A stretch of DNA of 64,000 bases from Blasia pusilla (Eukaryota): the NCBI GenBank assembly GCA_050084515.1, contig CM114271.1:4712001-4776000 (forward strand). Direction: 5' to 3'. Below the pieces are notes generated by a model. That model saw only the letters and a program-made list of their open reading frames with translations. It was not told the origin of the DNA and ran no database searches. This document shows, in pieces, positions 7,912 to 64,000 of this stretch. Positions within the stretch are counted from its first letter, which is position 1; every line of letters starts with the position of its first letter. The translations under genes and the position numbers were made by a program.

Positions 7912-10900
7912 GAAGGTCCTTAGACTTAAACATTTTGCTCTCCTTTGTAATAAGTGGGGATTGATGGGCCCTCCCACAATCCCATAGCATTTGTATGTAG
8001 CTATCCTTCCCCATAAAGCATAGCATCTGTTTGTCTATTTCTTATTCAAGACTAAACACATGAAAATCCCTCCCTAGTTGAAACTTAATCCCTTCTTCCC
8101 TTCTCTCTCCTTTTTCAAGATCCCCTATCTCTCTTTCCCTTTCGTATTGAAGAACTCACACTTCCAAAATAAGCTTTCTTTGAAATCTTTCCTTTTTCAA
8201 ATTTATCATTTTTTATTCTTCTTTAAAAGTGTAACATTATCTCTATTCCAAAATTATTATTTTGGTTACCACTTAACATGTGTCAAATGGTAAGAAAACT
8301 AATGAGAGTTTGTGATTGAATTTATATCATTATTTCATATTAAGGGAAATAAATTTTATCACATGTTTATCTTGAAATGAGATAAACATAAGTCTCCTTT
8401 GTAAAAGAAATATCATTTCAGTTTATGGTCCCTAAATCTTATTATTCTCAAGTTTATTTCCCGTAATATGAAAGAAAAATGTTAATAATATTTTTTAATA
8501 AAAATAAAGAGAAATTTTACATCCCAATTTTTTTCATATTTAAAAAATATACCATGACTTAATTTTGGTATAAAAAAAAGGACATGTGACATTCATGTTG
8601 TTTTCTACATTCAATTATTCTATCAAAAAATATTTGAGGGAGAAAGTTCTTTAATTTTCATTAAATTTATTCTAGTGAAAATTTGATTAAGACTTCATCG
8701 ATTAGAAAGGTTTCATTTTCTTTTAAGAAGGTATTAATGATTAAAATTATATGAATCAATTTGAAAATGAGAAATCCTAAAATCTACAGAGCAAACAAAT
8801 TGAAGGCATAAGTGAAAGGATCTTAAATTAACCAATTTGAAAACATATAGTCTGATTTCATAACATAGATGCTATCTATTTTATTAATGAAAGGTGAATT
8901 TTTGGCAGGATTTGCTCATTCTATGAAACATGTCATATTACAAGGTCAATGATCTATAAATAATTTTTCATAAATAGAATCAAAGTATATATGCTTTTAT
9001 AGATTGGTGCATGTATAACTAGAAGACATATAAGATTTTATGAGGGGATTTAAGAAAATAAGGGAGGATTTTTCCTTGTAAAACTAAGCGGGATAATGTG
9101 CTATAGTAGGATAAAGTAGGGATATTAATATGATTTTTCAACACAAAGGATTGGGAGGGGTTGGGATATCGAGTATCTTAGTTTAACTAAGAAACTATTT
9201 AAACATTAATACAGGGAGTAATGGAGGGAAGGAAAAAAATTGTTTGAAGTAAAAGAAGATGAAGGGAATGTATCACAAATAGCTAAGTTAGCCAAGTATG
9301 CTGGCATCCAGAAGACGAGTCTTGATTGTAAGTCAAACGAGGATGAATTGTAGTGAGAAACACCAAGTTAGATCCTAGACTAGGTTGTCACAAGATTAGG
9401 AGAAGGCGAGAATTTTTTGGCAATTTGAATGATGATACATGAGACTTAGTCAAGACGTACATCCGATCCATGAGTGAATTCTCAACAACAAAAGGATAGA
9501 CATACTAATATAGCAAATAAAGTAAGGTTTAAGACACGAAATTAGTCATTGGTTCAACGCAAGAGGCCAAATGGACAGAGACTAAGTTGTGGGGCTCCGA
9601 CCACTTAATATAGGCATGCACCTCGAGATAAGTCTTATGAGAATAGGGTAGAACTTTCACGAGAACTACGGAATAAAAAAGGTGGGAAATCTTTTTGAGG
9701 AACATTTCTAGTAGAAGGCGATTTCTTTGGGTGTTAGGAGTAGTCAAGATTGATGACAATGCCATACGAAACACAAGTGGCATTAAGGCAAAGGGTGGAG
9801 AAACTCAATGTGCCATCTTTGAGGTGATAAAGGACCAACCCAAATGGAGGGAATCCAATGGGCCATGAAAGGCACATTGGGTCTTATATTAAAGACTCTA
9901 TGATGTTGCAAAAAAAAGCACCAAATAGTCCATGGCTTAGTAGGTGATTTTATAGAAGATAACAACCATGGCTAAGGATAGCGACAAGCCTAAGAAGGCT
10001 AAAAGAAAAGCCACCAAATTTTAGCTTTCCTAGTATGTAGGAATTTTGAGGTATCTTGGGGTCTTATAGTGTCTTATATCCCATAAAGGTATGTTGTAGA
10101 ATGTAAGAATACTCGTAGAAGGGATGGACTAGGAGGAGACCTTTAGAGATGAAATGTCGATCGGCAGAGTAGATATGACTCATACACTTTACACTTTGAC
10201 TGATAAATTAAACTCAAGGATTCTATACGTAAGCTATGCGACCAATAAGACTTCAACATCCAATTTCAATTTCAATATGTTTGCTAAAGCTCATTAATGT
10301 CACCAAAGAGTTGCACCATTGTGATCTTCAATGAGACCCAATGTACAATCTTTGAGCACTTAAAGCACTACCAATAAGACTATATGGACAATATTGTAGC
10401 TGAAATTTTCTTGTTATCAAGGTATGAGTTTATGAATAGGAAGATGGATTATTCATTCATAGGGGCCACCTAGATATTGAGGCCCTTAATCAATGAGTGA
10501 CAAAGGTAGAGCAAGTGCTTGGGACTTAACCATGTTCCTAAAACTATGGGGAGAGTAGAGACCTCTATAAATATAGAAGCATACGCACTCACATGGGTGA
10601 TCGTAGATCTTGAAGGATCAAAACAGAATAGATTTAAAGTTGGGAATGAATACCCTAAGCATTGGTAATTTTCCGATAGATGTAGTTACAAAGTTCCATT
10701 ACGATGTTCATCATTGAAGGATCCATTAGTGATGATTTCTGATATGTTTGATGTCAATGAAGATTTCAACTCGATGGAGTTAATGGCAACCAATTTGAAA
10801 GAAAATCTAAGGAAGAATAGTACTATGATGACAACTAACTTTGGGAAGATGAATGACATCAATAATATGATGACTCAACTTGTGTTTGGAGATCCTAGCC

Positions 10901-12624: not shown

Positions 12625-15597
12625 TTTTTTTTCAAAATAAATATATCCACTTTATTATAAAATAAACCTCAAAAGAGGACACAGAAAGATAATAACAACT
12701 CAAAAGAGGAGTCAAAAAATGCATAAAAGAATGCAAAAAGAAAATGGTAACAAGCCAACACAAACACTGGCTCAACGAGCTACACGATTGATAGCCTGAA
12801 AAAAATATTACAAGAACACGAGTGGTTGGTCAGACTTGAATGGACGACGAGGCGAGCGACCCTCCACCACCTCCGCACGAGGTATCAATGCCAAGGCTTG
12901 TGCACGTTGGAAGGCCACTGAGATACATTGCCGAAAATAAGTAGTAACTACCGAGAGAGAAGGACTACGGGAAGGGGCAAGGTGATGATTCTCGAGGGAG
13001 TGGTGAGCACATGTTTTCAAGAAAGTATCAAAAGACACATGTAAATGACCGAATACTTCCACTGCAAAAGGAATAAATCCATCAGTCGCATGTCTCACAA
13101 CATAACTTAACTCCTTGATTCTTGCTGCAGCTCCGGCCGCCAAACCTTTGGTATGTGCGGCTCGATACACCAAGTCAGAACTTGTTGGATCAGCAATCAC
13201 CATATCACCTAGTGTCTGGAATCCACCTCGAGACATATCAAGATCTACTCTCCGACGAGAGGTTGCTTGTGTGGTTGAAGGTAGGACATGGAGTTGCTCT
13301 TGCCCAACGGTGTATCCTACAGTACGAGCCACCGATGCTACCGCCTTTCTAACGACATCATGTGTGGCCGTTCGTTCTCCATCATGTGCACATCGGAGAA
13401 TATGGATACCCTTGGCATCAATGGGATCCCCGCATACACAATTCGGCACACCTAAGAGTGAAGAATAGGGAAGTCCAAGACGTAACCGCAAAGCTGTCGA
13501 GAATATACTTTGAGGAAGATAAAATGGAAGAATAAGAGGATTTGCAGTAAGCCACGCCCCCGCTCTAGTACCCGCACATGAACGTAGACGAGCTCAATTA
13601 GCGTTAGAGGATGCCTCGGAGAGAATGCTGGAAAAGTTGATTTGATGCAGATTCTCGGAGATATGCTCTTGAAGTTGATCAAACCCTTCCGTAATCAGTT
13701 GACTGAAAGGGGATAGAATTTCTTGTGTAGCAAGAGGAAGAAGAGCTCGTGTAGATCTCAGTTTTTGTTGAAATAACAAGTCCCCCTCCTCTACATGGGC
13801 AATATGATCCATCAAGATAGATGTATCTCCTTGGAGAAACCTTGAAACCTTGAAGCCATAATCGGTGCTACCAACACCCAACTCCCCAAAAAGGCTGCGA
13901 GAGCATAAGCGACTGTGGAGGACAGTCCCACCCCTCCAAAAGAAATAGGCAAGATAGCTTGTCGTGAAGCAAAGACCCCATCCTCTCCCTCAAAGGTATT
14001 CGGGCCAAGAAGTTGACCAAAAGTTGTCAAGATAGAAGCGTCAAAAGAGGCCAACCGATGTAAGAACCTTGAAGTCGGAGGACAAGTGCGAAGAAGGTAG
14101 GAAGGACGTCGTAGAAAAAATTGGGAGAGAATCCCATAAGCCACTTGGGGATCCCCTAGATGAGGTAACAAATAAAGCCATTCCACGTCTTTCAAAAGGG
14201 CCTCATCCAAGAACTTTGAGACATAGTCGATGAAGCCAATTGGGACCCCAAGAACTCTAACCCCTTCAATGTAGATGGGAAAATCAAGATTAGGTGGGGT
14301 GAATGTTGAGGGAAGGCATGAAGGAGACCATACTCCATATTTACTAGGTTGGACTTTAAGGTTTAAGAAAGAGAGTCGCTCCACGAAATGGGTATAAGCA
14401 AGAACCACTTCAGAAGGAGGACCTATAATGTGAGTGTCATCAGCAATAGAAGGGAAAAGACAAGATGGAAATGCTTGCGCTGATGCTCGAAGGGCACGAA
14501 AATGGGCAATGGCAATCAAGAGTGAAGAAAATCCCATGCACCACAGCCTCACAACCTCTAGGAGTTGCCACTCCAAATTGATGAGGAAATAAGTGGGCAC
14601 TAAAGTGAGGACGAAATTGCAAGCATAGGGATCGACTAACCAAGCGGTATAAAACCTCTCCAATAGCCAAAGAGCGCACATCTGAAGGAGGCTTATCCAA
14701 AGCCAACAAATGACAAACCTCCAAGAGCCTAGAGATAGAGAATGGGAGATGACCGGCCGTCATATGTGCACACACCATATAGAGAGAGACAAAGCCACTT
14801 GTTGAATCTGCTGGGATAAAGCAATCGTAGAGATGCTCAAAAACCATCCCTGATAGCCCACTTGCTGATAAGCGAGGAGTATGCAGAAAAGCCCTTGTGA
14901 AACCTCCAAATCAAGCTCCAAGTCAAGGTCCGTTGTATAGTCTTCTACAAAAGGTGGAGCATCGCCACTTGAAGGAGGATGAAGAGATTCTAAGAGAGCC
15001 ACTGTTTCCGCACTTGGAACCGCCGGAGAAAGAGGACCCAATGCTCGAGCTGCATGTGAAAACTCACCAACCTGCCCCAAAAGTAGACTTCGTTGAAGGC
15101 GTTGTTGTATTGAAGGCCTACCATGATTGGCATGTTGAGTAGGATGAGCCGCAACTAAGGCCTTTGCTCGAAGTACATGCTCATTTTGAAGATTCTCCCA
15201 ATCCCCAGACATAAAGCGTTGAATACCTGTGGAGGTTTCACGATGACCTGTTGCACCATCCCTTGGAGGGAGGACTAAAATCCATTATGGGAAGAGTAAT
15301 TGGAGATACCAAGCATTGATATCTGTGGGGTCACGTGCTAACCTTTCTAATGGGAAAAGCAAAGCTTGTTGGGTGATGGGGCGAAAAGCAATAGGAATGC
15401 GAGTGTAGAATCTAGGACGAGGAAGACTTGGATGGAAAGAGCGAAGGAGATCAATTTGGCTTAACTAGGTCCAAAAAGTTATTGTGGGGAGTGCAGTAGG
15501 AGGTGGTATCAGGTTAGGGATTGAAGGCCCATGCATGGATCGACAATACCACTGATGTCTTTTGATCCCATTAGGAGCAAACTCCTTACCACAAGGT
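12625..15597 (-). mobile_element. CRE-like non-LTR retrotransposon, 3' part (RT plus restriction-like endonuclease), decayed
   Basis: RT motifs DVRSLAIGEVLYRL, HQFGVATPRGCEAVVH, IADDTHIIG, LGVPIG, LPISFGGVGL. Zn knuckle and REL endonuclease CVCG..HILRC..RTATHD..RVD..D..K...FIPFAVEVFG (12808-13491). The central RT motifs are deleted near 14520. Short A-tail near 12625. Confidence 0.85.
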
Positions 15598-16112
15598 TGT
15601 CACGACTGTTAGGATAAATCGGTGGGATCTAGCAAAGCGTCTTCACGAGTAGTGGAGGACAGGCCCAGGAGGTCAAGGATGACCTGTTGAGGCCCCAGGA
15701 AACCTGAGAGAGCAGGTTTCCCCTTCGTTTCAGCTCATTTGGAGCCATATAGAGAAACTTACTATTTCAGGTAAATTTCTATATTGAGGATAATTAAATT
15801 TCCACTTTGGGAAGTGGCCCTCGACCCGCTACAGTAGGTCAAGAGCCAAGGAGGTGACTTGCGAGCATAGATTACCGTTGAGAGGGCTTGGGAGAGGGAA
15901 GGGGGTATACCTCCAAGAGAGGGAGCTTGAGAGCTCATTCTCTCTTTGTTAAACCTCTTGGCATAAGGCGGCGGAACTATGGTCCCTTGTCTTGTGAGTG
16001 TAACCCAAGCCTCTCATTAGGAGAGTGGGTTTGGTTTCACATGAGAGAGAGTGCACACATTTGAGAGCTATGGTGTGAGATGATGTAGAGAGATATTGGA
16101 TCTTACTTTACA
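15598..16112 (+). repeat. Terminal repeat segment A1 (about 515 bp)
   Basis: Direct repeat of 25310-25826; begins tgtcacgactgttagg and ends cttactttaca. Confidence 0.92.
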
Positions 16113-17822
16113 AAGACAGAAAGAGAGAATGAGAGAATGAGAGAGTGAGAGATCTTCATGGGGGAGCTCGCTAATCACTTGTTGTTTTTTCAGGTTGGGG
16201 ACCGTGTTCCCCATTCAGCGGCTCATGGGAGTGCTCACCGGAGCAAGGGCTCCTTTGATTGTTCTTTGCATTTGCCGATTTTTCGTGTGGAAGAGTGACG
16301 CGCGGAAGCGCTGCCCAATTTCTGATAGAGATTGATTATGGGGGTGGGTTGCCCCATGCCAATGCTCTTGGGAGCACCATGTAGCTTGCTGATTTGTATT
16401 TTTCCAGGTTTTACATTTTCGTTGAGAGAAATCAGCGCGGAAGCGCTGCCAAATTTTGTGTAGGAGAAAGAGACATTGGGCTTTACGACAGTCCCCATCA
16501 ATTTTTACTGGAATGTTTGGTTCTAAATATTTTTGACATTGTCGTAGATCGTGAAGTTGTGCACGCTGTGCAACAAACAATGCGCAATTTGGATTTGCGA
16601 GCAAAAAGTTATGGTCAATCTTGAAAATTTTCCATTGCTAGGCGATTTTTAGGGTTAAATTGTTCAAATCCGTAAACCAGCCGGCGTCGCCGTCATAGTC
16701 ACAATCAATGGTCCGCCGTTGATGGTCAATCGTCACCATCACCATCAATCATCAACCGTCACCGTCAACAGTCCACGGTCCATTGTCCACCCTTTGGTTG
16801 CCATTGCCGTCGTTACGGAGTGGAGGGTCTTCCATGACGTTCGTTGATTCTCTGACTTGCGTCGCCACTACGTACTTTATTTTGGCCGCCGCCGTCATCG
16901 TTGTTTCATCATCAACCAGTGATGGCAGATGACCTCCGCTTATGGTGTTTGAGTTTTGATTTCATACTGCTATGTTGTGATTGGTAGCCGCTCGACGACG
17001 ATCGAGTACCGTGCCGTGACGCCCGTATCCGCAACGCGCCGCCGATTGCCGCGCCGTGCCGCTCGTGGCCGCACTGCACCGTCTCGATCGCGGAGCCGCA
17101 CCGTCATTTTGGAGAAGAGTGTGGGTTTATTTTTGATTGAGGAGGGTATGCCGCGGAGTGCCACATCCCACCATCGAGGTCCGTGCCGTTCGTAGTCGTT
17201 CCGTGCCGCCTGCAACGCCGCACCGTTCTGTTGGAACCGCACTGTCTATCGAGGATTTTTGAGCAGCGTCAGTACATGAGGAGTATGACTTGCTGATTGG
17301 AGGAGTTATCTCCATGACCGAGTTAGGTTCGAGATTTGCAGTTGCTGAGGAGCGACATCGACATGTGTTCAGGTTACCCATTCTGGTCCTTTACCCTGCA
17401 CGTGTGAGGGATTTTGGGATTTGGGTAGTTTATTTGGGGATATTGGGTGTGTGGATGCTGAGAGCATCATTTATATATGTGGTTTAGGGGACATAGACCT
17501 GTGTGGGATGTCCGGAGTTGAGGGTAGGTTGTCGATGAGATGGTAGCCAGGTCGATTTGCCGCACCACGCCGCGTGTTGCCGCACGTTACACGTCTTGGG
17601 GAGGGAGAGTGTAGATCGAGTGCCACATGTTTGGGATGAGTGATTGAGGGATTATTCACGAGGTTGAGAGTGATCGTATGAGAGGGCACAAGGGTCATCA
17701 CGGAGTACGTTCAGGACTTTGAGAGGCGAGGTGGTGAACCCGAGAGTAGCTCTAGAGGTTTTACGCGGAGTGGCGCGAGGTTCCGAGGGTCTCCACGTGA
17801 GGGACCACCTCGACCTCCTTCT

Positions 17823-18960
17823 GTGTCATCGTCAGACAAGGGGGAGGGTGTAGAGGAGTTTGTGAGCACATCGCCACACATTATGAGTGGTCCTACCAGT
17901 TGGGTGTACGAGATGGACGACCGGGGTAGAGGACCACATAGGTTTTCAGGTGCAGTAGGCACGATTGAGTTGCACGATTTCATAGCCGATTTTAGGAGTT
18001 GGTGCGACTCCCAGCGGGCCAGGAACTCTAGAGAGTTCAACCCGTTTACAACATGGAACGGTATGTTCCAGCATTTAGAGGGGGCGCCCATGGACGATTA
18101 CCATGAGTTCTCTCAGAGATATGCACGTGAGATCGAGGCGTGGAGGCTCTACTATGACCCACATTATGTGTCATGGACGGAGCTGTTCCCAGATGAGGAG
18201 GAGGAGTCAGGAGAGGCTACTTCCTCTTCCACTAGTGACATTTTAGGAGGGGTCACTCGCACGGGAGCAGTTGCACCGTCTCGTCGGGTTCGTCCCAAGT
18301 TCAACCCTGTGGTTGAGTTCTTTGATGAGTTGAGGGCGAGCTACCAGGGGATACGGACGGAGAAGTTGCGGAGCATCCATGACTTCTAGAGGCGCCCAGG
18401 TGAGAGTTTTCATGAGGCTTACACTCGCTTGTGCCGGTTGATCAACGTTACTCAGGGGTGACAGAGGCTTAGGCTATCCAGTCATGGTACGCGATGCTGG
18501 ACCGGACCCTGCGGACACGGGTCTGGGAGGGGGTGCTTCTTATGAACACCTCCCCTACGTTGAGAGATGCTTTTAGGACCGCCAAGAACATTGAGCGCAA
18601 CATGGCGGAGGAGAGCGTAGCCACCATGGGTACTAGGCGAGAGCAGTCGCGATTGTCTGCACCACCTGTGCAGCAACGTGGACTCCGAGATAGGTCGATT
18701 GTGGCACCACCAGCTGAAGGAGAATACCGGGAGGTCGTGCCACAGAGACCTACGCCTTTACATGTGGCTCAGTAGCAGCCGCCTACTATTACTTGTTGGT
18801 CATGTGGTGGAGCCCATCATCAACGCGATTGCACTCGTCAGGGTCATGGACGTGTGCCTTAGCATGGAGGAGGAGATGGTGCTGCACCAGGAGGTTATCA
18901 GTGTCACTATTGTCAGAGGTATGGTCATACACGCGCCAGGTGTTTCAATTTACATCCTAA
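17823..18960 (+). pseudogene. gag with two CCHC zinc knuckles
   Basis: ORFs 17823-18389 and 18494-18775, then CWSCGGAHHQRDC (about 18795) and CHYCQRYGHTRARC (about 18902). Interrupted by stops and frameshifts. Confidence 0.85.
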
Positions 18961-19878
18961 GTTACGTCCGGACCGAGGGCCAGAGAGGGCACCAGAGCGA
19001 GTAGCCGGTCTGGGTGGGTCTAGAGATCGTGCACCATGTAGTCTCGTTGGGGGATGAGGAGCTAGAGTTTCCCGATAGGGTGGTGGAGCTGCCCATGGAG
19101 GAGGTAGTGTACCACCATCTAGATGCGCCGAGGGAGACTCCGGACGTGAGGCTGGGATGGCTGCTCAATACAAAAGCTACATGAGCAGATTTCCGCTATG
19201 GCATTGAGGTTACCCGATGCCGGATCCGTGACATCGACATCATATGGAGCAGCCAGAGATCTGGAGGATCCTGGTTGGATGTGCGGGGTTGCCCAGATGG
19301 AGGCAGCCAAAGTTGTGATGCGTGGAGCAGCTGCAAAGTTGGATCCACAGCGAGGGGAAGCCATGAAATAGACGAGGCTTCCTCAATCTTTCACGTTGTC
19401 CGAGGTGATGAGGATCCCATCGATGGGTCCTGAACAGAGTTCATGGAGAGTTGGTGATGTTGTTGGTATGCAGGCACGGAGGGCGATGAGAGAAGCGAGT
19501 ACAACAACTCCTATTGTTGATGCTCATGAGGGGCATGTGTTGAGCACGTTGTTGGGGGTGGCCACTGTTGTGTACCGCACTCTTTTATTTTCTACTTCCA
19601 ATGTTATGATGTTGGGGGATACGCCCGCCGAGGCTTTTCGGCTGGCCGCCTCACTATGTGATCACTGTGGCGGAGTTGGAGTTCCTGCATCACGTTCAGA
19701 GGTGATTGCAGAGGAGGTGACGGACCTGCCCTTGGAGCGGATGCTCGGGCCGTCCACGTGAGATTCATGGCAGGCTGTGGCTGCTAGGATGGCGGAGATG
19801 CCCGCTAGATCCGCGATAGAGCGTGCCATGGCTTCTCCTGGTGTTGTGTTGCTGGATAACTGAGGAGAGGTCTTTCAG

Positions 19879-20290
19879 TTGGTGAGTCTCAGAGGTAGAG
19901 CTTTTAGTCCGCAGCGTGCCCTGTTGGATTCTGGAGCGCAACCCCTGATGTTGGGGAAAGCGTCATTCAGAGGATTGGGCTTGACGAGAGCTGATGTGGA
20001 GTGTCGTCCATTCCAAATACAGACATCCTTGGATGGAGTGAGTACCACACAATATATCACCCGATAGGAGGTCATGGTGAGGATTCGCCCGGGACATCCT
20101 ACAGATGAGTCCGTGGTGCGAGCCAAGGCGATAGTGACTGATGCAGAGTCCTACGACGTCTTGGTTGGTGGAGCAGTGTTATACTCGATGGGGTTTTCCC
20201 TAGATTACTAGGAGGAGTCAGCGTCCTACAGACCAAGATGGCAGTAAGGTGATGGGCGCCTTAGCTCATTACCCGTTCGATTCACAGGTG
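19879..20290 (+). pseudogene. retropepsin aspartic protease domain
   Basis: RALLDSGAQPLMLG active-site motif and downstream YDVLVGGAVL. Confidence 0.85.
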
Positions 20291-20641
20291 CAGTGATCGA
20301 GCAACGGCCAAGAGAGAGATGGCGACCTTAGTAGCATTTAGCAGTTCCATCACTTACCCTAGTGATTTGATTGAGGGATATGTCCATGCAGAGGATACTC
20401 CCGTTCCCAACATTTCTATGGAGAGGAGTGTTATGGTAGCCGCATCATTCTGTGGAGGAGAGGTGCCGCTGTGGGGTCGACTGAGGAGCTTCGACGATTG
20501 GCAGATGAGCACGTGCAAACCGCGTGGAGCGAGGCGTTTGCACTGGAGCGTGATAGGTCAGAGGAACCCGAGGTAGCAGGGAGTGCTACGATGACACCCT
20601 TGGATACCACACCCATTGTGTGGTGTACCCTGGAGGAGGGT

Positions 20642-21580
20642 ATTCGAGTGTTAGATCTCTTTGGAGGGATTAGCACCGGGTTAGTTGTTGTTTTGCAGGC
20701 ACGAGTGCGAGTACTGCAGTACCTGTATGTGGAGAGTGATGATGTTGCGAGGCGCGTCTCACTACGACATGTGGCGCAGTTATGCCTACGTTTTCATGAC
20801 TTATTGTCTGCGTCCGCAGTACAGGGGTACCAGAGTTCCCTACCGAGGGATATTTTGTTGCTGGGGCGCAGGACTTAGAGAGGGTAGGGACCATTGATTT
20901 GGTCATTTCCGGTTGGCCATGTCAGGGCCAATCGAGTGCTGGACAAGGCAACGGGTTGGCTGACACTCGGTCCAGGTTGTTTTGGGAGATGTTGAGGGTC
21001 TTACGGCAGTTGCAGGAGCACCAGTCTTGTTCTCCAACCTACATTCTGGAGAACGTGCCGATCTTAGGAGACTCCAGGTCATGGGTGGTCACAAGTGCTC
21101 ATCAGGTGCGTGCTTCGATCGGCCCAGCAGTGTTCTTGGATGCGGCGAGTGTAGGTTCTAGAGCCCATCGCCCGCGTCTATGGTGGATCAACTTGGTGCC
21201 CCATGCGGTCTTACGGAGGGCATATGCGAGAGTGGAGCGCCCCTCCCATTTGTTAGTGGATTCCATTCTGGATCCAAGTCGTCGCTTACAAGCAGTGAGG
21301 CACGATGATCGACCATCGTTGACTGTGGTCAACAGGATGGGCAGGCCGCAGGCAGCCTTTCCCACGTTTGTGAGTTTTCCCGCTTCCTATACATACAAGG
21401 AGGCCGGTCCTGGCTTGGTTTGGGATGACTAGGTTCAGCGGTTGGTGGAGACCAATGTCAACAAGAGAGAGAGAGCGATGGGATTTCCCACAGGAGTGAT
21501 GGCAATACCGTTAGTGTCATAGGCATCACAACGCCACGTCTTGGGTCAGGCGATAGACCTGAACTGCTTGACATGGATCC
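20642..21580 (+). pseudogene. DNMT3-like C5 cytosine DNA methyltransferase domain within pol (copy 1)
   Basis: Motif I VLDLFGGISTG, II YVESD, IV IDLVISGWPCQG, VI ILENV, VIII RAHRPRLWWINL, IX/X RERAMGFP...VLGQAIDLN. One frameshift near 20865 and stops in the C-terminal part. Confidence 0.92.
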
Positions 21581-22160
21581 TAGCTTGGGAGTGGCTGAGC
21601 AGCGTTGTATGAGATTGCAACAGATCACAACGGTTGCGTTGGTGAGCCCTATGCCTACTGAGACGGTGGAGGCAGTGGCTGGGGGCGAGACCCGAGGAGA
21701 TCTACACACCATGGGAGATCGGGAGAGACACCCTTGGACTTCTTGGGATGTTTTGCAGGTACGCCAGGAGATGATAGCCACAACATCCAACGTGGTTTAG
21801 AGCACTGCATGTGGAGGAGATCAGAGTTTGCAGTTGGCTGCAGGAGAGCAGTCGAGTATTGTTGTTCGAGACGGGTTTGCACCATAGCAACCAACGATAC
21901 CCGCGCTGGAGAGTCCTACCGTACTCACAATGGAGACTTGGGTGCCAGATATGGGCCCTAAGTTGACAGGAGGAGAGCGGCGACGAATACATCAGTTCCT
22001 CAGGAGTTATAGGAGCTGGTTTGCATTTAACATGGAGGATTTGGGTACGCTGAAGGGATCGGGGATCCACATTGAGTTATCGAGTGATACGCCGATCTTC
22101 CGACGACCCTACAGGTATAGTGATATGGAGAGGGCTCTGATTTAGAGTAGGAGCCAAGAC

Positions 22161-23009
22161 TTGGTTGGAGCAGGACTAGTGGAGATGTTGCATGGAGAGT
22201 ATGCATTTGCCACTATCATGCCCACCAAGAAGGATGTGCATGGCAACAAGACGGATAGGCGGATGTGTGGGGATTACCGACCTATCAATCGGGAGACGAA
22301 GTCCGATAGGTATGCCATGCCCACCCCTGAGGAGATCTTTGATACGAATGGTCACGCAAAGGTCTTCAGTTCATTGGATTTGCGAGCCGGATACCATCAA
22401 CAGCCTATCAGATTGGAGGACAGGCAGAAGACGGCATTTTGGGGCATCGATCCTCACGGGAAGGATTGTTTGTACGAGTGGCGGTTCTTACCATTTGGGT
22501 TAAAGAACGCCATGGTTGAGTTTCAGAGCATCATAGATAGGATCTCGGCTGGTCTGGATTTTGCTAGGTATTATATTGATGACATCGTAGTCTTTAGCGC
22601 CACCGTTGAGGAGCATGAGCGACATGTAGAGGAGGTGTTTCGACGATTGCAAATACATGGACTGAAGCTACATCCAGGCGAGTGCAAGTTCTTCTACGAT
22701 CGGATTGAGTACTTGGGTCATACGATATACCCAAGGGGCCTTGGTGTTCAGCAGACGAAGGTAGAGGCTATCTCACGTATTCCACGCCCTACAGATGTGA
22801 GCCGTGTTCGCGCATTCGTAGGATTGGCAAACTTCTATCGGCGGTACGTCAAGGGATTCTATTCGATTGCGAAGCCGTTGACCTTGCTGACCAAGGTGGA
22901 TCATGAGTGGCAATGGGGGGATGAGCAAGAGCGAGCATTTCAATTGCTCAAGGACAGGTTGACGTCTGCACCCATCTTGAGGAGATCGATCAGGGGGCGT
23001 CCTTTCTAG
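22161..23009 (+). pseudogene. Gypsy reverse transcriptase (copy 1)
   Basis: RMCGDYRPIN, LDLRAGYHQ, LPFGLKNA, YIDDIVVFS, YLGH. Confidence 0.97.
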
Positions 23010-23381
23010 TTGCACACAAATTGGAGCATGTTGGGGCTTGGAGCGGTGCTCACCCAACATGATGATGAGGGTAGAGAGTTTGTAGTGGCTTACGCTAGCC
23101 GCTCGAACAACGCTGCAGAGGCGAAGTACAGATCGCATGAGGGTGAGTGCTTGGCTGCAGTGTGGGCTGTCGCGCATTTTAGGTGTTACTTATTCGGCAA
23201 CCCCTTTACCATCATCACTGATCATCAACCACTGAAGTGGTTGATGGAGTCCGAAAAGCTTACAGGGAAGCTTGCGAGATGGGCTCTGTTGTTGCAAGAG
23301 TATGATTTTCAGGTGGTACATAGACCTAGGACGCTCAACGAGGATGCAGATGGGTTGAGTCGTAACCCATGCCCGAGTTAG
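23010..23381 (+). pseudogene. RNase H (copy 1)
   Basis: GLGAVLTQ, VAYASRS, ECLAAVWAV, TDHQPLKWL, DADGLSR. Confidence 0.95.
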
Positions 23382-23689
23382 CGAGATGCGACTGGAGCTC
23401 GATGGCGTGGAGAGAGTGAAGAGAGTCAGTGCCAGGATGGCACGCGTCAGCCTATTTAGGCATGTTGGCTAAGGAGAGCCAAAGTGTGCAGACTTCGATG
23501 GTGAGGTCTAGTGGCGAGTCCTTGGATCCCGAGGCTAGTGAGGAGACGACAAGTGGCCGAGATATTCATGATGATGGAGTAGTCTTGGAGTACCTTCGTA
23601 CTGGCAGCATTGCGAGCACCGTGGGTGCTAGAGAGCGGAATCGGATCCTATAGCGGGCCAGACGGTTCCGTTGGGAGGGGACACATATT

Positions 23690-24800
23690 TTGAGGGTTTG
23701 GGAGGATGGCAGAGTACGCGTAGTGCCACATCCTTCGCAGAGAGCACGACTAGTGCAGCATGCCCACGAGGAGTTGGGTCACTTTGGGGTGAAGCGGACG
23801 TACAACTTGCTCCAGATTCAGTATTGGTGGCGAGGCATGCAGACTGACGTTCAGCAGTTTGTTGCCAGGTGCATGGTGTGTGATTGGGTCTGAGCATCGT
23901 TCAATGCTCCGACTCCACAGTTGCATCCATTACCGATCATGGGCTTAGGGTATAGAGGGAGTTTGGATTTTGCAGGACCTTTGCCTTTGACGGAGCGTCA
24001 CAGTCGTTATGTATTGGTGATGGTCCAGCACTTCTCGAAGTGGATTGAGTTGGTTGCATTGCCTGACAAAGTGAGTGAGGGAATAGCTTATGCCTTCCTT
24101 GACAGAGTGTTGAGTCATTATGGCGCACCGGATGAGGTGTTGACAGACCAGGGTACCGAGTTTCGCGGTGAGTTTCAGGCCTTGTGTGATCAAGCACTGA
24201 TCGACCATCGTACTACTTCGCGAGATCATCCTAAGGCAGATGGACTAGCGGAGCGGGTTGTGCAGACGGTGAAGAGAGGAATACGCAAGTATGGCTTGCA
24301 GAGAGGTCACCTAGGAGATTGGGACCTTCAATTTCCGTGGTTGGCGATGGGATACAGATTCAGCATGCAGGCATCCTTAGCGTCTTTTTCACCATACTTG
24401 CTATTTTATGGCCGAGAGCCAGATTTACCTGTGGCCATTCGTCGAGATGTTGGTGAGGTGTTGGACCTTGATGACCCAGATGTATGGATGCGAGCATGTT
24501 CTCATAGGGTTGATTTGTTTTGGAGAGTGATGCCCATGGCGTTCGAGAACTTGGCGATTGCGCAGCATCAGGATACATTGAGGTATATGACTATTCGGGG
24601 TGGTGGTTATTGACCAACTATCCGGAGGTTTCATCATGGAGATTATGTCTACTTGCAGCAGACGGCACCAAAAATGTTGGATGTCACTGAAGGGCGCACT
24701 ATCTTGAGAGTGTGTGACGTTTTGCCATCCGGTGTTCTCTTGCTGGAGGGACGCGATGGTATGGTCTGGAAGGACCATGTGCGTAATTTTGCGCCATGTC
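23690..24800 (+). pseudogene. DDE integrase (copy 1)
   Basis: HHCC motif HEELGH...CMVC; core LDFAGP, TDQGTEF, GLAERVVQT. Confidence 0.95.
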
Positions 24801-24856
24801 ACCTTCCTAACATTGGTGGTACAGTAGATCCGAGCTTAGTAGTAGTTCCTTCACGC

Positions 24857-25003
24857 TTGCGTTGTATGTTGTATGGTTCCGCCCGTGGTGCGGCCACGAT
24901 GCTAGTCTGTGATGGATTTTTGAGAGCTTGGCATATGGCATGTCTGACGCCACCTCTCACTAGGGTTCCTCGGGGACGATGGATGTGTCCCATATGTACA
25001 TAG
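24857..25003 (+). pseudogene. C-terminal PHD finger fused to integrase (copy 1)
   Basis: CMLYG...MLVCDGF...WHMACLTPPL..VPRGRWMCPIC fits C4HC3 spacing with two Cys lost. Copy 2 keeps the second Cys (CMLC). Confidence 0.88.
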
Positions 25004-25176
25004 AGGAGATACTAGGTAGGTTTTGATTCTGACTTTTTTTGTGATATGGATGACATGAAGGCGACTAACGATGGGGCCGCATGAGCACCCGACCTTTCTG
25101 CTCTTAGCGTCCTAGAGATGTATGTCGTGGTAGATAGGGATAGAGGGCTATCTGGAGTTAGAGGTACCTAACCACC

Positions 25177-25190
25177 AGCTAGGGGGGCGA
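25177..25190 (+). promoter_or_regulatory. polypurine-tract-like plus-strand priming site
   Basis: agctaggggggcga lies immediately before repeat B1 and is conserved before B at about 50351 and 51202. Confidence 0.7.
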
Positions 25191-25191
25191 T

Positions 25192-25307
25192 TGGAAATAT
25201 TTTGGTACTTCTCGCCTCTGTGTATGGATGCCATGAGTAAGCATGGGATCGTGTGTGCGTTCGATGACAGCGATGTATGTTGTGTAGCAATATGTATGTG
25301 TACGACA
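25192..25307 (+). repeat. Repeat segment B1
   Basis: tggaaatattttggtacttctcgcc...tacgaca; direct repeat of 25827-25956; followed by a 2-bp spacer ac and then A2. Confidence 0.92.
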
Positions 25308-25309
25308 AC

Positions 25310-25826
25310 TGTCATGACTGTTAGGATAGATCGGTGGGATCTAGCAGAGCGTCTTCACGAGTAGTGGAGGACATACCCAAGAGATCGAAGATGACCTGCT
25401 GAGGCCCCGAGAAATCTGAGAGAGCAGAGGTTTCCCCTTCATTTCGGCTCATTTGGAGCCATATAGAGAAACTTACTATTTCACGTAAGTTTCCGTATTA
25501 GGGATAGTTGACTTTCCACATTGGGAAGTGGCCCTTGACTCGCTACAGCAAGTCAAGAGCCAAGGAGATGACCTGCTAACATAGGTTACCGTTGAGAGGG
25601 CTTGGGAGAGGGAAGGGGGTATACCTCCAAGAGAGGGAGCTTGAGAGCTCATTCTCCCTTTGTTGAACCTCTTGGCATAAGGCGGCGGAGCTATGGTCCC
25701 TTGCCTTGTGAGTATAACCCAAGCCTCTCATTAGGAGAGTGGGTTTGGTTTGACATGATAGAGAGTGCACACCTTTGAGAGCTATGGTGTGAGATGGTGT
25801 AGACAGAGATTGCATCTTATTTTAAA
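25310..25826 (+). repeat. Repeat segment A2
   Basis: Direct repeat of 15598-16112. Confidence 0.92.
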
Positions 25827-25956
25827 TGGAGATATTTTGGTACTTCTCGCCTTTGTGTATGGATGCCATGAGTTAGCATGGGATTGCGTGTGTTTGTTTG
25901 TGTGTGTGTTCGATGACAGCGATGTATGTTGTGTAGCGATATGTATGCGCACGACA
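25827..25956 (+). repeat. Repeat segment B2 (right terminus of copy 1)
   Basis: Second copy of B ending gcacgaca, followed by TSD aggt. Confidence 0.92.
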
Positions 25957-26500
25957 AGGTATGCAACGAACCTTTGGTACAAATGGAGAAGTAGAAGGGT
26001 TACAAGGAGAGGTGAGATTGCAAGACGTGGTGATGGCCAACGATGAGGGGGTAAGTAGGTTGGGGCAAGAGGAGGAGGAAGAGGGGAGATTTTCGGGTAG
26101 AATAGATGGGATTTGGAAGCAAGGGCATAGATGAGATATGTGGGGATAGCAAAGTAGAAGGATTCGAAAATAATGGATCAAGATTATGCTCAATAGGACA
26201 AGGCGAAGAAGGGAGAAGAGGAGAATCCGGAAGAAATGTAGCGAGTGTAATGGACGTATTAGCATCTCGAGGAAAATGGCGAGATCTACGATGAGGAGAT
26301 GAACCATTGGGAGAGGTTACGGCTGTAGGAGGGCGTGTAAAACCAGATAAGCGAGTAGACGGAGAATCCAACTCCATCTCAATGACCGCTATGAGGGAAT
26401 GAGTTCGTAATGTTGGGCCCATTCCGTATCTAAAGATCCAGAAAGGCATGAGGAATCCCTTAAACCAATGGTAACCCGGTATCACTCTATAAGGAGAGCG
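25957..26500 (-). mobile_element. 5' part of the CRE-like non-LTR element split by copy 1
   Basis: Pro/Ser-rich ORF remnants. Joined across the TSD to 15597 it reads VRCIPCGKEFAPNGIKRHQWYC (zinc finger). The 5' limit is approximate. Confidence 0.8.
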
Positions 26501-31400: not shown

Positions 31401-31866
31401 TCAGGAGGGCTTCTGATTAGACAGCACCGCAGAAGCAGTTCCCTCATGCGAGAAGTGGGACCCAAATCCAACTAGCGAATGGCACGAGAAGATTGGGATT
31501 CAAAACCACGAAGTAAAGAAGGTGATGACAACAATTGAATGCTCCTCAAAGCCACTTGCAAGGGGAGCGCAGGGCCGTAGGTGCGCCGTGAATCTGTCAT
31601 ACACTTAAAGCGCGACATTGTGGCGCGTCTGTTTGGGAATTGCTTGGGCCATCATGAGTGCGAGGCTTTTCAAAGCCTCACACTCATAATGGCCTTGCGC
31701 TCCCCTTGCAAGTGGCTCTGAGGAGCATTCAATTGTTGTCATCACTTTCTTTACTTCGTGATTTTGAATCCCAATCTTCTCGTGCCATTCGCTAGCTGGA
31801 TTTGGGTCCCACTTCTCGCATTAGGGAACTGCTTCTGCGGTGCTGTCTAATCAGAAGCCCTCCTGA
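31401..31866. repeat. Long inverted repeat (176-bp arms, 114-bp spacer); candidate hairpin RNA or fold-back element
   Basis: 31401-31576 is the reverse complement of 31691-31866 with about 6 mismatches counted by eye. A second short hairpin lies at about 31647-31694. Confidence 0.95.
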
Positions 31867-42795: not shown

Positions 42796-44281
42796 TGTCA
42801 CGCCCTTTAGGATAGATCGGTGAGATTATCTAGGCCATTATAGGCCCAATAAACTTAATAGTTTTGCATTTGGAAAAAAACTTAAATGAAAATATGATCG
42901 ACTTTCTAAATATTGAGCTAATTACAAGGAGGTGACTTGGGAGAATAGGTTACCATGAAGAGAGCTTGGGAGAAATATATCCCAAGGAGAGAGAGCTTAA
43001 TGATTGTTGAATCTTAGCATGGCGGAGGAGCTATGGTCCCTTGCCTTGTGAGTGTAACCCAAGCCTCTCATTAGGAGTGGGTTTGGTTTCATGAGAGAGA
43101 GTGCACACCTTTGAGAGCTATGGTGTGAGATTATTAGAGAGAGATTAGATCTTATTTTACAAAGAGAGAATGAGAGAGTGAGAAAGCTTCATCGATGGAC
43201 ACTGCTCCTCTTCGCTCAAAATGGGATCTCAAGGGTTGCTTGGATTGTTCTTTCCTTTTCGATAGGATTGAGTAACTGCCCCATTCTTTGGGAGCACCAT
43301 GTCTTATTTATACAGGTTTTACATTTTTTGGGAGGAATTACAATTTTATGTTGGAGAAAAGACATTGGGCTTTGGCTAGAATGTCCGATTCTAAATATTT
43401 TTAATGATGGCGATTTGAATCAATTTTCGATGAGAAAAAGGTTATGATCAATCTTGCAAAATTTCCATTTTATTTTTAGGTTAAATTGTGCAAACCCTAA
43501 ACCAGCCGCCACATGGCTCGCCGCGCGCGTCATAGTCTTATCACCTCCTGGTCAACTTTTAATATCACCATCAATTCCTAAAATGGTCCACCTTGTTGTC
43601 CACCCTTGGTTGCCATTCACGGAGTGGAGGGTCTTCCACAAGGTTCGTTGATTCCGCCATCATGTACTTTGTTTTGTGCCACTCATCAAAGACGGCATAT
43701 GACCTCCTATTATAGTGTTTGAGTTTTGATTTCCTTCTAATATCAACTAGCGACCGCCTTTGTCTCGCAGCCGATCCGGAATTATGGAGAAAATTGGGGT
43801 TTATTGTTGATTGCACCTTTATTTCTAAGAGTTTTTTCATCCGGGAGAATATGACTTGCTGATTCGAGGATTGCGAGTTGGGGTAGAGATTTTGTTCGAC
43901 ATTGACATGTTATTACCCATTTTGGTCCTTTATTGTGAGGGTTTCTGGGATTTTGGTAGTTTATTTGGGAATACTGGGTATGTGGATGTTACATCATTTA
44001 TATGTGGTTTAGGGGACATAGCTTGTTGTCGAGTTGAGGTTAGGTTATCGATGAAATGATAACATGGTATTTGCGCCATATTCGCTCATTACATGTCTCG
44101 GGTAGGTTTGATCACATGTTTGGGATGAGTGATTGAAAGATTACTCACGAGGCAAGATGAGAAGGGCACGAGGTTCATCGCGTCCGGTCGGGACTTTCGA
44201 GGTGGTGAATCCGAGAGTATCTAGAGGTTTTATGCGGAGTGGCGTGAGGTTCCGAGGGTCTTCACTTCAGGGGCCACCTCA
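42796..44281 (+). mobile_element. Fragment of the DNMT-Gypsy family (A repeat plus leader), riddled with small deletions
   Basis: Starts tgtcacgccctttaggatagatcgg and is collinear with 15598-17815. May be distorted by assembly consensus errors. Confidence 0.8.
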
Positions 44282-47587: not shown

Positions 47588-48267
47588 ATAAAAATACGAT
47601 CCAATCTCTCTCAACACCTAAGATTGAGGGTGAACATCCCCCAAAAATGGGATCTACTCACTCTACCTCAAAATAGCTGAATTCACTTGTCCTATCCACC
47701 AAGTAAACTGATTTTTTTTCTACCACTCAAGAAATTATTTCTACCCAATTTTTTTGAAATTTCACTCATACATTGAAATGGTGGCTATGGAAGCCCACAA
47801 AAAGTGTCGTAACTTCATGCTCAAATATTGGATCATGCACCGTTTCTTCTCCAGCATGCACAACTTCTCGATCTATGAGTTCATCAAATTGGTTTCTCCA
47901 TTTGATCTTCCACCAAAAATTGAACTATCGTGTAGCCTAACGTCCCTTTCTCCTACACAAAAATTGGCAACGCTTCCGCCCTGATTTATCCCAAAAAATA
48001 TATAAAACCTATCATAAAACAAACCAACGAGCTACATGGTACTCCTTAGAGCACCAGTATGGAGCAGTCCGCCCCCATTGGGCAGCGCTTCCGAGTGCCA
48101 CTCTCATATATGAAAATCAACAATGCAAAACAACAAACTACATCGCTCCTGCCCCTATGAGCACTCCCATGAGCCATGAAGTGATGAACATGGTCCCCCA
48201 ACCTGAAAAACAAGCAAGCAACCTGAGAGCTCTCCCATGAAGCTCTCCCACTCACTCATTCTCTCTT

Positions 48268-48774
48268 TGTAAATTGCGATCCAATCTCTCTCAACACCAT
48301 AGCTCTCAAATGTGTGCTCTCTCACATGTCTCTCTCAATGTCAAACCAAACCCACTCTCCTAATGAGAGGCTTGGGTTACACTTACAAGGCAAGCAAGAC
48401 CATAGCTCCGCCGCCTCATGCCAAGAGGTTCAACAAAGAGAGAATTAGCTCTCAAACTCTCTCTCCTTGAGGTATACCCCCTTCCCTCTCCCAAGCTCGG
48501 TCCTCGGTAACCTATGCTCGCACGTCACCTCCTTGGCTCTTGACCTGTTTAAGCGGGTCAAGGGCCACTTCCCAAAGTGGAAATTCAATATGGAAACTTA
48601 CCCAAAATAGTAAGGTTCTCTATATGGCTCCAAATGAGCCGAAACGAAGGGAAAACCTGCTCTCTCAGGTTTCCCAGGACCTCAGCAGTCATCCTCGATC
48701 TCCTGAGCCTGACCTTCTCTACTCGCAAAGGCGTTACATGTGATCACTCCGATCTGTCCTAAAAAATCGTGACA
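48268..48774 (-). repeat. Repeat segment A, followed by partial leader (47640-48267)
   Basis: Reverse complement of A starting tgtcacgattttttagg; leader homologous to 58230-58926. Confidence 0.9.
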
Positions 48775-48849
48775 ATCTGCGGACTGGCAACGTCGCTAGT
48801 GGGTGCTAGAGAGCGGGATCGGATCACAGCGAGCCAGATGGTTCCGGTG

Positions 48850-50180: not shown

Positions 50181-50364
50181 TAGGGTAGGTAGTTCTAGAT
50201 TCCGACTTGTGTCTGTGATATGGATGACAAGAAGGCGACTAACGATGGGGCCGCATGAGCACCCGGCCTTTTGGCTCTTAGCGTCCGAGAGATGTATGTC
50301 ATGGTAGGTAGGGATAGATGGCTATATAGAGTTAGAGGGACCTAACCACCAGCTAGGGGGCGAT

Positions 50365-56970: not shown

Positions 56971-58926
56971 AGATCGAGGTGGTCTCTCACATGGAGACCC
57001 TCGAAACCTCGCACCACTCCGGGTAAACCCTCCAGAGCTACTCTCAGATCCACTACCTCGCCTCTCAAAATCTCGAAAGGATGCCGTGATGACCCTCGTG
57101 CCCCCTTCATACGATCACTCTCAACCTCACAAGTAATCACTCAAGCACTCAACTAAACAGGCGGCACTCAATCCACACTCTCTCACTAAGAAGTGTGTTG
57201 TGCGGCAACAAGCGGCATGGTGCGGCAAATTATTTACAGTCATATCATCTCATCGATAAGACACACCCTCAACTCTAGACATCCCACACAGGTCTATGTC
57301 CCCTAAACCACATACATGAACGATGCTCTCAGAGTCTACACAAAACTCAATATCTCAAATAACTATCCAATACCCGAAAATCCCTAACACGTGGAGGACA
57401 AAAGATCAAAATGGACCATGCTCCTTTCGCGACCTGTCTATTACCTATTGATTTGTGGGGTTCGAGTTTTCTATATGCTATGCCTTGATTTGTGACCATT
57501 CGACGAGGATCAAATATCGTATCATGACACTAGTAATCGTGGCGGGTCGCGACGGGAGCGTGGCAGGTCGCGACAGTGCAAGTAGGTCTACGGCAGCTGC
57601 GAGCAGGCCCGACACGAGTGTGGAAGATCGCATTAGGGCAGCGCCTCAGTTAGAGCGGCTGCTCCGTTGACAAACCTTCCGCAGGAGCCGGCGGCTGAGT
57701 AGCCGACAGACGCTGCCGGGACGGATGGAAATGTATGGTGGGCGGGCGGTCACAGGCCCTCACGGAGCCGCGAATAGGCTGATGACACAGCAGGCCCTGT
57801 ACGTGCGTCGGCGCAAGCTCGCCCGTGACTGTCAGCTGAAGGCCTGAAGGTAGTGGCAGTGACGGGGGTGGAAGAGGCACGCGTCCGCATGGAGCAGCAG
57901 GCGGGCCGGGTCGGAAGACTCTCCGCCGTGGAATAGCCGTGTCTACCACATTTGAGCGGCGCCTAGGAGAATGGCCGCGGTTAGTCGCGGTTACTGGGCG
58001 CCCAGGAGGTGTTGGCACCTTGTTCGACTGCGGCACATCAGAGGACGGTAGTGGCGACAAGTCTAGCACACGCGCGGCTCTAGCGGCAGTTTCAGCATGG
58101 TCGGAAGTGGACTACATGCGGCAGGAGGGCTAACTACTGAGAGACAACGTCAGCGGAACAGCCGGCTGGATGCGGTCAGGGCTGGCGGACGTGGTTCCCC
58201 TCACAGACTTCCTATTTTTACTCAAATACCCCCCTACAAATTCGGATCTCAACTCAAATTTTCCCACTAACTCCACAATTGGTGGGTCAAATCTTCTAAA
58301 TTTATTTTTCACTCAGCTTCTACCTCAAAGGACATGTGCCCTTGTCCTATCCCTTAAGATGAAAACGAATTTTAATTTTTCTACCCATCAACAAGGATTT
58401 TTATCCAAAGATTTTAGAAACTTCACTCACAACTTGGAACAATGGCTATGGCAGCCCAACTGTCGTAACTTCACGCTCAGATAAGAAATTGCGCACCGTT
58501 TCTTCCACATCGTGCACAACTTCTCGATGATAGGACCTCATTGAATTGGTTCCTCCATTCGATCTTCCACAAAAAAACTGAGCGGGACTGTCGTGCAACC
58601 TCACGTCTCTTTCTCCTACGCAAAATTTGGATTGCTCCCAAAAAAAGTGTAAAACCTTATCATAAAACAAACCAGAAAGCTACATGGTGATCCCGAGAGC
58701 ACCAACATGGAGCAATCCTCCCCCATACTCAATTTCTATCCAAAATTGGGCAACGCTTCCGCGTGCCACTCTCATGTACGAAAATCAACAAAGAAAAAAT
58801 AGCAAACTTGCGCGGCTCTTGCTCGGGTGAGCACTCCCATAAGTCATGAAGCGGGGAACATGGTCCCCCAACCTGCAAAACCAGTGAGCTCCCCCATGAA
58901 GCTCTCTCACTCACTCATTCTCTCTT

Positions 58927-59072
58927 TGTAAAAATGCGATCCAATCCCTCTCAACACCATAACTCTCAAATGTGTGCACTATCACATGTCTCTCTCAATG
59001 TCAAACCAAACCCACTCTACTCGCGAAGGCGCTCTACCAGATTTCTCTGATCTATCCTAAAAAGTCGTGATA
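58927..59072 (-). repeat. Internally deleted A repeat (5' terminus of copy 2)
   Basis: The first about 55 nt of A are joined to its last about 90 nt. Confidence 0.85.
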
Positions 59073-63945: not shown

Positions 63946-64000
63946 TAGGGATCCCGGGACTAACACTCTGGATGGTAATTACTCGTGCTAGACGAGAGTG

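Follow-up and report, generated by a model that had tools for sequence, protein, structure and literature searches.

Priming of minus-strand DNA by an element's own RNA is known in the Tf1/sushi group of retroelements; in Tf1, the RNA pairs with the primer-binding site (PBS) through its first 11 bases and is cut by RNase H between base 11 and base 12 (PMC7175516). In plants, 12% of the long terminal repeat (LTR) elements in one survey are predicted to self-prime, namely the Tcn1 clade of mosses and clubmosses and the TAR copia elements; the text of that survey (PMC6317226) contains neither "Marchantia" nor "methyltransferase" (0 occurrences each). KnitGypsy-Dnmt3 of Klebsormidium nitens (De Mendoza et al. 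2018) combines gypsy domains with a Dnmt3-type DNA methyltransferase (DNMT) in Pol and is laid out as A-coding region-B-A-B (PMC5890265). The main text of the latter paper never mentions PBS, priming, polypurine, circular or target site, the word "primer" is absent from its supplement text (further supplements may exist), and a 2026 preprint names the Gypsy-DNMT3 elements of streptophytes in passing only. Self-priming in bryophyte elements and the split-repeat layout of Gypsy-DNMT3 are already published; our literature search returned no account of the priming mode of the Gypsy-DNMT3 family or of an offset between its copied and inserted units. In the present study we analysed a window of 64,000 nt from Blasia pusilla (assembly GCA_050084515.1, contig CM114271.1, positions 4,712,001-4,776,000, forward strand), which holds four decayed copies, e1 to e4, of a Ty3/gypsy-order retroelement with a DNMT3-like domain. 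This family is the Gypsy-DNMT3 of streptophytes. Its sequences indicate that the element's own RNA probably primes minus-strand synthesis, in the manner of Tf1; this reading is well supported but not proven, and we put its probability at roughly 0.7.

Comparison of the window with itself delimits e1 at 15598-25956, a decayed element of about 10.4 kb with the repeat layout A1..B1-A2-B2 (Table 1); upstream of A, the three 5' copies within the window have flanks unrelated to one another. The original prediction had been that the sequence following A is the reverse complement of a motif inside A, and this relationship was located at all the places that it named: a search with ACAAAGAGAGAATGAG, allowing at most one mismatch, gave eight matches in the window against 0.00 expected from 100 shuffles, four of them after A and four, as reverse complements, inside A. 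The 13-nt perfect pairing of 48258-48270 with 48433-48445 in the 48-kb copy was likewise recovered, and in e1 an 8-nt insertion limits the pairing to 14 nt (16120-16133 with 15934-15947). Dinucleotide shuffles of A reached the run observed in e1 in 0 of 2000 cases for a 40-nt zone and in 15 of 2000 for a 20-nt zone; the corresponding values for e3 were 1 and 0 of 2000. The motif of e2 and e3 carries one uncompensated C-to-A change. Because of this change, the insertion in e1 and the loss of the motif in e4, the window on its own displays a real complement without covariation. Consistent with the original prediction that no TGG-type PBS follows A, the first TGG past the end of A (16112) in e1 occurs at 16159, after 47 nt without one, and the relatives have no TGG within about 20 nt of the repeat end. 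A tRNA-type PBS thus appears to be lacking at the repeat boundary, as judged by the absence of TGG.

The comparative evidence comes from lineage M, which comprises 80 metagenome loci obtained from a contig scan with DNMT-region alignment. These relatives have the same layout as the window elements (in L056, A1 at 1679-2017, B1 at 10238-10350, A2 at 10353-10691 and B2 at 10693-10805; L040 likewise). Loss of the complementarity in related families had been named in advance as the outcome that would count against self-priming; instead, the M motif CATAGTTCTTTGAG and the M post-A sequence CTCAAAGAACTATG are again exact reverse complements, and both are unlike those of the window. Among the 23 five-prime copies scored in M (four pairs of them near-identical), three possess a perfect complement of 17 nt, a further six have 10-12 nt at the same site, and another three have 8 nt, or 11-17 nt when G-U pairs are allowed. 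The longest run within a lineage is mostly 9-18 nt, the exceptions being e1 with its split site (8 nt) and e4 with its lost motif (4 nt), while the motif of one lineage paired with the site of the other yields only 4-7 nt. The differences between the lineages include a 2-nt indel that is matched on both partners (TTTG[AG]T versus A[CT]CAAA). A third lineage could not be added, since no usable 5' end was found in 23 further loci.

In both lineages the complement starts +27 to +29, counted from the leading T of a TATA box. The window has TATAC as this box; in M it is mostly TATAAAG, with TATAG, at distance 27, in some copies. The motif, originally placed about 28 nt after gggtatac, was measured at +29 from the TATAC at 15906. 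At the other partner, A1 runs on into the complement, whereas A2 stops there (...TTTTCA in M, ...TTT(TA) in the window) and is followed by B. The end of the copied repeat coincides with the start of the complement, so that priming must occur at that boundary, and the TGG tracts 20-47 nt downstream are thereby excluded as primer sites. In the proposed mechanism, transcription would start about 27-29 nt past the TATA box within A, the 5'-most 14-16 nt of the RNA would fold back onto the complement adjoining the end of A and, by likeness to Tf1, an RNase H cut of the RNA there would yield the primer. The agreement of two lineages in both the complement and its position relative to the TATA box and repeat end supports the Tf1-like signature originally proposed.

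RNA folding from motif to site places the 5' end in pairing with the site, in both minimum-free-energy and centroid structures, for L056 (-55.7 kcal/mol, z -2.51) and e3 (-62.8 kcal/mol, z -2.05), although these folds presuppose the chosen transcript start. An unconstrained RNAalifold run on 10 M copies produced nine motif-site pairs, as well as a small hairpin across the repeat end with two compensatory changes. Three raw RNA-seq runs from one study, bearing the same species label, were mapped on 15300-26200 at 80% likeness. The reads are nearly all sense (depth of 20-260 per bin versus 0.4-19 in the other orientation) and come from other copies of the family, since most are less than 90% like e1; in all three runs sense RNA covers the leader and the B-A joint. 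Across this joint, 90-164 reads in each run extend beyond 25956 into GC+TGTCATGACC, whereas the joint of A end to B start is spanned by one read only. Loose (GA)n ends at 16114 and 16152 were discarded as microsatellite cross-mapping, and the apparent joints 25255->25895 and 25376->15670 were rejected as mosaics of the two B or two A copies and not real junctions.

Two further complementary segments were noted around the motif. A copy of the priming site lies at the U3 end, just 5' of the motif (CTCAAAGAAC in M, 3 nt before the motif, at 1836-1857 of L056), with a degenerate counterpart in the window (CCAAGAGAGGGAG, 15913-15949); this gives the motif an alternative partner, in a local hairpin across the predicted start site. 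About 110 nt past the TATA box, both lineages have, at homologous positions, a second segment partly complementary to the priming site (ATTCTYTGAGTGG in M, about 1925-1937 of L056; CCTCTCATTAGG in the window, about 15994-16005). In L025 (1898-2113 versus 10497-10837) the 5' A is without the hairpin and motif region that the 3' A keeps; since L051 and L017 are also without a similar stretch, this palindromic region seems prone to deletion.

A number of observations weigh against self-priming. In the window, e4 has kept the post-A sequence intact but has lost the motif, leaving one of three testable copies without pairing; in M, 11 of the 23 copies no longer pair, their motif being deleted or their site decayed. 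The alignment of M has 85.4% of its cells paired, and sliding the partner by 1-3 columns lowers this to 38-55%, but the paired percentage was reached by 105 of 500 shuffles, so that covariation there is no better than in shuffled alignments. Both sides have changed together in only two pairs, in L033 and L068, where an A-U pair became G-C. The weakness of covariation within M is due to the near invariance of both sides, and the comparative case consequently rests on the comparison between lineages. The covariation that had been suggested as a check across subfamilies is seen as concerted change between lineages and does not exceed shuffles within M. Pairing of the motif with the upstream arm and with the second site about 110 nt past the TATA box creates competing folds. 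In the RNA data, the low likeness of most reads to e1 prevents their assignment to A1 or A2, and no pile-up of read starts near 15934 was listed in the three runs at a bin width of 364 nt. Finally, ARAGORN reported 0 tRNA genes in the window and returned none from the 80 loci (with its parsing unchecked), which leaves no tRNA set for comparison.

The alternative that survives best is that the pairing of motif and site is a conserved structure of the leader RNA, serving packaging, dimerisation or translation control, while another RNA, such as a tRNA fragment at the end of A, acts as the primer. The RNA-seq does not place the transcription start, and the motif takes part in a local hairpin and has a second partial complement, as might be seen in a structured leader; moreover, priming by half-tRNAs is known from plant copia lineages (PMC6317226). 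We nevertheless consider this explanation unlikely. The site adjoins the end of the copied repeat, which is where priming occurs, and the complement lies at the distance from the TATA box expected of a start site. The site also differs between the lineages in step with its own motif, whereas a host tRNA would have kept it constant.

The predicted priming site marks one edge of the copied unit, and a G-run marks the other. B starts with TG 2 nt past this conserved run (AGCTAGGGGGGCGAT in the window, AGCTAGGGGGGCGAG(T) in M), which precedes B in 24 of the 34 B ends scored in M and in one more (L063) where it is interrupted by a single A. Plus-strand synthesis would start from the G-run just before B; together with priming at the end of A, this predicts a duplicated unit B+A bounded by TG...CA. 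The joint between A2 and B2 reads CA+GT+TG in L014, L015 and L040, and CA+AT+TG in L056; in L025 it carries an insertion of 22 nt, part of which is the end of the G-run. The window lineage varies as well: e1 reads TTTTA-AA-TGG and e3 TTTTT-AT-TGG, B begins 200 nt further upstream in e2, and DNA contigs show TTTACAAA+T+TGG and other forms. These forms match the joined ends expected of a B+A LTR and thus support B+A as the replicative LTR. The original prediction that A ends at U5 and that the replicative LTR is B+A agrees with the stop of A2, with the G-run and TG, and with the A2-B2 joint, in which 2 nt separate the end of U5 from the start of U3.

The inserted unit is different. Instead of having B+A as their limits, integrated copies start at the A start (TGTCA) and end at the B end (GACA), a point absent from the original prediction. 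The same LTR at both ends, as in a canonical LTR element, was not found: the 3' ends consist of B-A-B or of B alone. None of the 19 distinct M 5' copies has B in front of its 5' A. The A-coding-B-A-B form occurs in e1 and e2 in the window and in L014, L015, L025, L040 and L056, together with L005, which is cut by the contig end. About 16 distinct loci are of the A..B form, in which the G-run precedes B and flanking sequence follows without an A2-B2 part; four of these have a perfect 4-bp target-site duplication (TSD). The A..B form may have arisen by direct insertion of a one-unit molecule or by recombination between the two B repeats. The B-A joint is constant (GACA-GC-TGTC) and forms a 16-nt palindrome in some decayed copies. 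Of the ten M elements with both ends, six show a perfect 4-bp TSD, three match at three of four positions and one has no match. For e1 itself, 15597 is connected to 25967/8 through ATGC.. in ten DNA contigs of run X1, giving an empty site ..CACAAGGT-ATGC.. with a single AGGT; these contigs probably derive from other copies of the host repeat, and run X1 may be the assembly's own source. The B2 of e2 is likewise followed by AGGT (51338-51341), the same four bases as the e1 TSD, by chance (1 in 256) or through a target preference.

The layout A1..B1-A2-B2, with an internal B-A joint formed of joined ends, is also that of PAT, Toc and Ngaro (PMC4157794). This likeness brings in another explanation, namely replication as in DIRS, PAT and Ngaro, in which a transcript from A1 to B2 is copied, its ends are rebuilt on the internal B1-A2 joint and the complement serves in circle formation. 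The A..B-A-B order is a split-direct-repeat layout (PMC4157794 and PMC5890265), and the B-A joint is constant while the A-B joint varies, as this scheme would have it. On the other hand, a match to the tyrosine recombinase PF00589, an enzyme that PAT, Toc and Ngaro encode, was found in none of the 26 window open reading frames (ORFs) or the six relatives' proteins, and an rve integrase of the DDE type is present. The DIRS, PAT and Ngaro elements are not known to produce a TSD on insertion, whereas e1 and its relatives have 4-bp duplications. The single read over the joint of A end to B start, against the many over that of B end to A start, implies that few transcripts reach B2, and the G-run and priming site lie exactly at the edges of B+A, unlike in PAT, Toc and Ngaro. 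We therefore regard replication of this kind as quite improbable. A chance match between two low-complexity (GA/CT) tracts can be set aside as highly improbable: the original caution about low complexity is justified for both motifs in the window lineage, and (GA)n RNA reads do cross-map to 16114-16152, but the M motif is not of low complexity and pairs over 14-17 nt, the observed run was reached by 0-1 of 2000 shuffles in three of the four tests, and the eight window matches compare with an expectation of 0.00.

Given self-priming and a B+A unit, the integrated copies are a rotated reverse-transcription product, with 4-bp TSDs and the order A..B-A-B or A..B. How the rotation arises is a working inference, which we hold at somewhat below even odds: the ends of the cDNA would be joined to give the A-B joint, and the integrase would then open the near-palindromic B-A joint. 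Possible sources of the A..B forms are circles with a single LTR, cutting at both joints, and subsequent B/B recombination. A two-LTR circle opened at either B-A joint should also give A-B-A..B, and this form was found in none of the 19 distinct copies, which counts against the rotation model; quicker loss by recombination between the longer A repeats is a possible reason. Routes to A..B-A-B that involve the reverse transcriptase (RT) only (a second plus-strand primer at the B-A joint, read-through RNA, or palindrome priming) were considered and rejected, as none gives the observed order. The full proposal is tentative and, on balance, rather doubtful: a DDE-integrase family whose self-primed B+A cDNA has its ends joined and is opened at the internal GACA-GC-TGTC, so that every insertion would be the rotated A..B-A-B and not the linear product. 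In the same proposal, the copy of the priming site at the U3 end would fold into a hairpin with the primer sequence's 3' copy, leaving the RNA 5' end as the only primer. If true, the rotated insertion would provide explicit sequence landmarks for the replication of split-direct-repeat retroelements.

Like Tf1 and Tf2 of Schizosaccharomyces pombe and the Tf1/sushi group in general, the present elements have a site beside the 5' repeat that is complementary to the predicted start of their own transcript, and no tRNA-type TGG site. They differ from that group in the greater length of their complement (13-17 nt), in carrying a DNMT domain and in the rotation of their integrated repeats. In chromoviruses and Tf1/sushi elements a chromodomain occupies the place of the PHD finger found here; a Pfam scan of the region after rve found the PHD finger (PF00628, 24614-25003, E 1.1e-06) and no chromodomain. 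The likeness to Tf1/sushi seen here concerns the priming signature. The elements also resemble the Tcn1-clade chromoviruses and TAR copia as LTR elements of plants, including bryophytes, that are without a tRNA PBS and are predicted to self-prime (PMC6317226), and differ from them in having DNMT and PHD domains and split repeats. To the Tf1/sushi group and these two plant lineages a DNMT-carrying gypsy family of streptophytes is now added, on evidence that is comparative, with primer and site changing together, and goes beyond a single match. Gypsy-DNMT3 joins LTR-type landmarks (priming site, G-run, TG..CA and 4-bp TSDs) to a split-repeat layout otherwise known from tyrosine-recombinase elements, and its integrated copies show a rotated repeat order. 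With these landmarks, and with transcription evident in available RNA-seq, the origin of A..B-A-B elements becomes testable in this family.

The assignment to Gypsy-DNMT3 follows from the RT-RNase H-rve order, the position of the DNMT 5' of the RT, the Dnmt3-type profile matches and the A-coding-B-A-B layout. The domains are arranged in the order gag zinc knuckle, DNMT, RT, RNase H, DDE integrase and PHD finger, and all coding domains of e1 are disrupted by stops and frameshifts. When the DNMT family profile was compared with PDB, 29 of 31 matches were to DNMT3A/3B/3C (best E-value 2.6e-10). The nearest proteins are those of Marchantia polymorpha and Calypogeia fissa (60-67% identity), followed by Sphagnum (48%); the host affinity is accordingly bryophyte-like, unlike that of KnitGypsy-Dnmt3. 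The coordinates of all features are collected in Table 1. In addition to the short form listed there, B1 has a long form that begins at 24975, within the end of the PHD ORF.

Table 1. Features of the Gypsy-DNMT3 copies in the window (positions within the 64,000 nt), and target-site duplications and A..B loci of lineage M
Feature	Positions	Strand	Remarks
e1, TSD, left copy AGGT	15594..15597	+	e1 flank
e1, repeat A1 (TGTCACG...TTTACA)	15598..16112	+	promoter part and R-U5 of the copied LTR; 90.5% identity to A2
e1, TATA-like box TATAC	15906..15910	+	TATAAAG at the equivalent place in relatives (alignment)
e1, motif CTCATTCTCTCTTTGT	15934..15949	+	proposed self-primer, forming the 5'-most 16 nt of the RNA; +29 from TATA T
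e1, predicted primer-binding site	16110..16133	+	complementary to motif; split by 8-nt insertion
e1, untranslated leader X	16134..17400	+	common to e2, e3 and e4
e1, DNMT remnant (PF00145)	20800..21432	+	family profile nearest DNMT3A/3B/3C
e1, RT and RNase H remnants	22146..23381	+	
e1, integrase zinc finger, rve core and C-terminal PHD finger remnants	23654..25003	+	
e1, polypurine-like G-run AGCTAGGGGGGCGAT	25177..25191	+	directly 5' of B
e1, repeat B1, short form (TGGAAAT...CGACA)	25192..25307	+	
e1, 2-nt spacer of the B-A joint	25308..25309	+	AC in e1; GC in relatives and RNA reads
e1, repeat A2	25310..25824	+	includes motif copy 25648-25663
e1, repeat B2	25827..25956	+	right terminus ...CACGACA
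e1, TSD, right copy AGGT	25957..25960	+	e1 flank
e2	59018 to 51342	-	3' part 48776-51341 inverted
e2, 5' end	58914..59018	-	last 90 nt of A1 and intact primer-binding site
e3	48775-47446	-	internal deletion
e3, 5' end	A 48775-48271; motif 48448-48433; primer-binding site 48270-48255	-	
e4	42797-44283	+	5' part only
e4, A and site	42797..43174	+	diverged A; primer-binding site kept, motif lost
ACAAAGAGAGAATGAG after A, e1	16118-16133	+	1 mismatch
ACAAAGAGAGAATGAG after A, e4	43159-43174	+	
ACAAAGAGAGAATGAG after A, e3	48255-48270	-	
ACAAAGAGAGAATGAG after A, e2	58914-58929	-	
ACAAAGAGAGAATGAG, reverse complement inside A	15934-15949; 25648-25663; 48433-48448; 50829-50844		
M, perfect 4-bp TSD			L016 TACA, L025 TCTC, L056 AAGG, L066 TGTT, L068 TTCA; L052 TGTG, provided that a single substitution accounts for its first bases
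M, TSD matching at 3 of 4 positions			L040, L043, L057
M, no TSD match			L033
M, A..B loci			L016, L018, L027, L030, L033, L048, L050, L052, L057, L063, L064, L066, L068, L070, L074, L075

The inverted part of e2 (48776-51341) consists of the internal 3' end, B1, A2 and B2, and its breakpoints correspond to e1 positions 23596/23621 and to a point just past B2; the inversion could be either real or an assembly artefact. The element e1 is nested in another high-copy repeat (15300-15597 and 25961-26200), as indicated by a word depth of about 16,000 in run X1 and by the empty-site contigs. The e1 flank contains TGGTATCAG at 15505-15513, which we take to resemble a tRNA-iMet-type primer site. Another dispersed repeat occurs at 38572-39214 and 63355-63955, with 71-91% identity between the two copies. 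An inverted repeat unrelated to the element lies at 31401-31576 and 31691-31866; its arms of 176 nt are 97% complementary and 114 nt apart.

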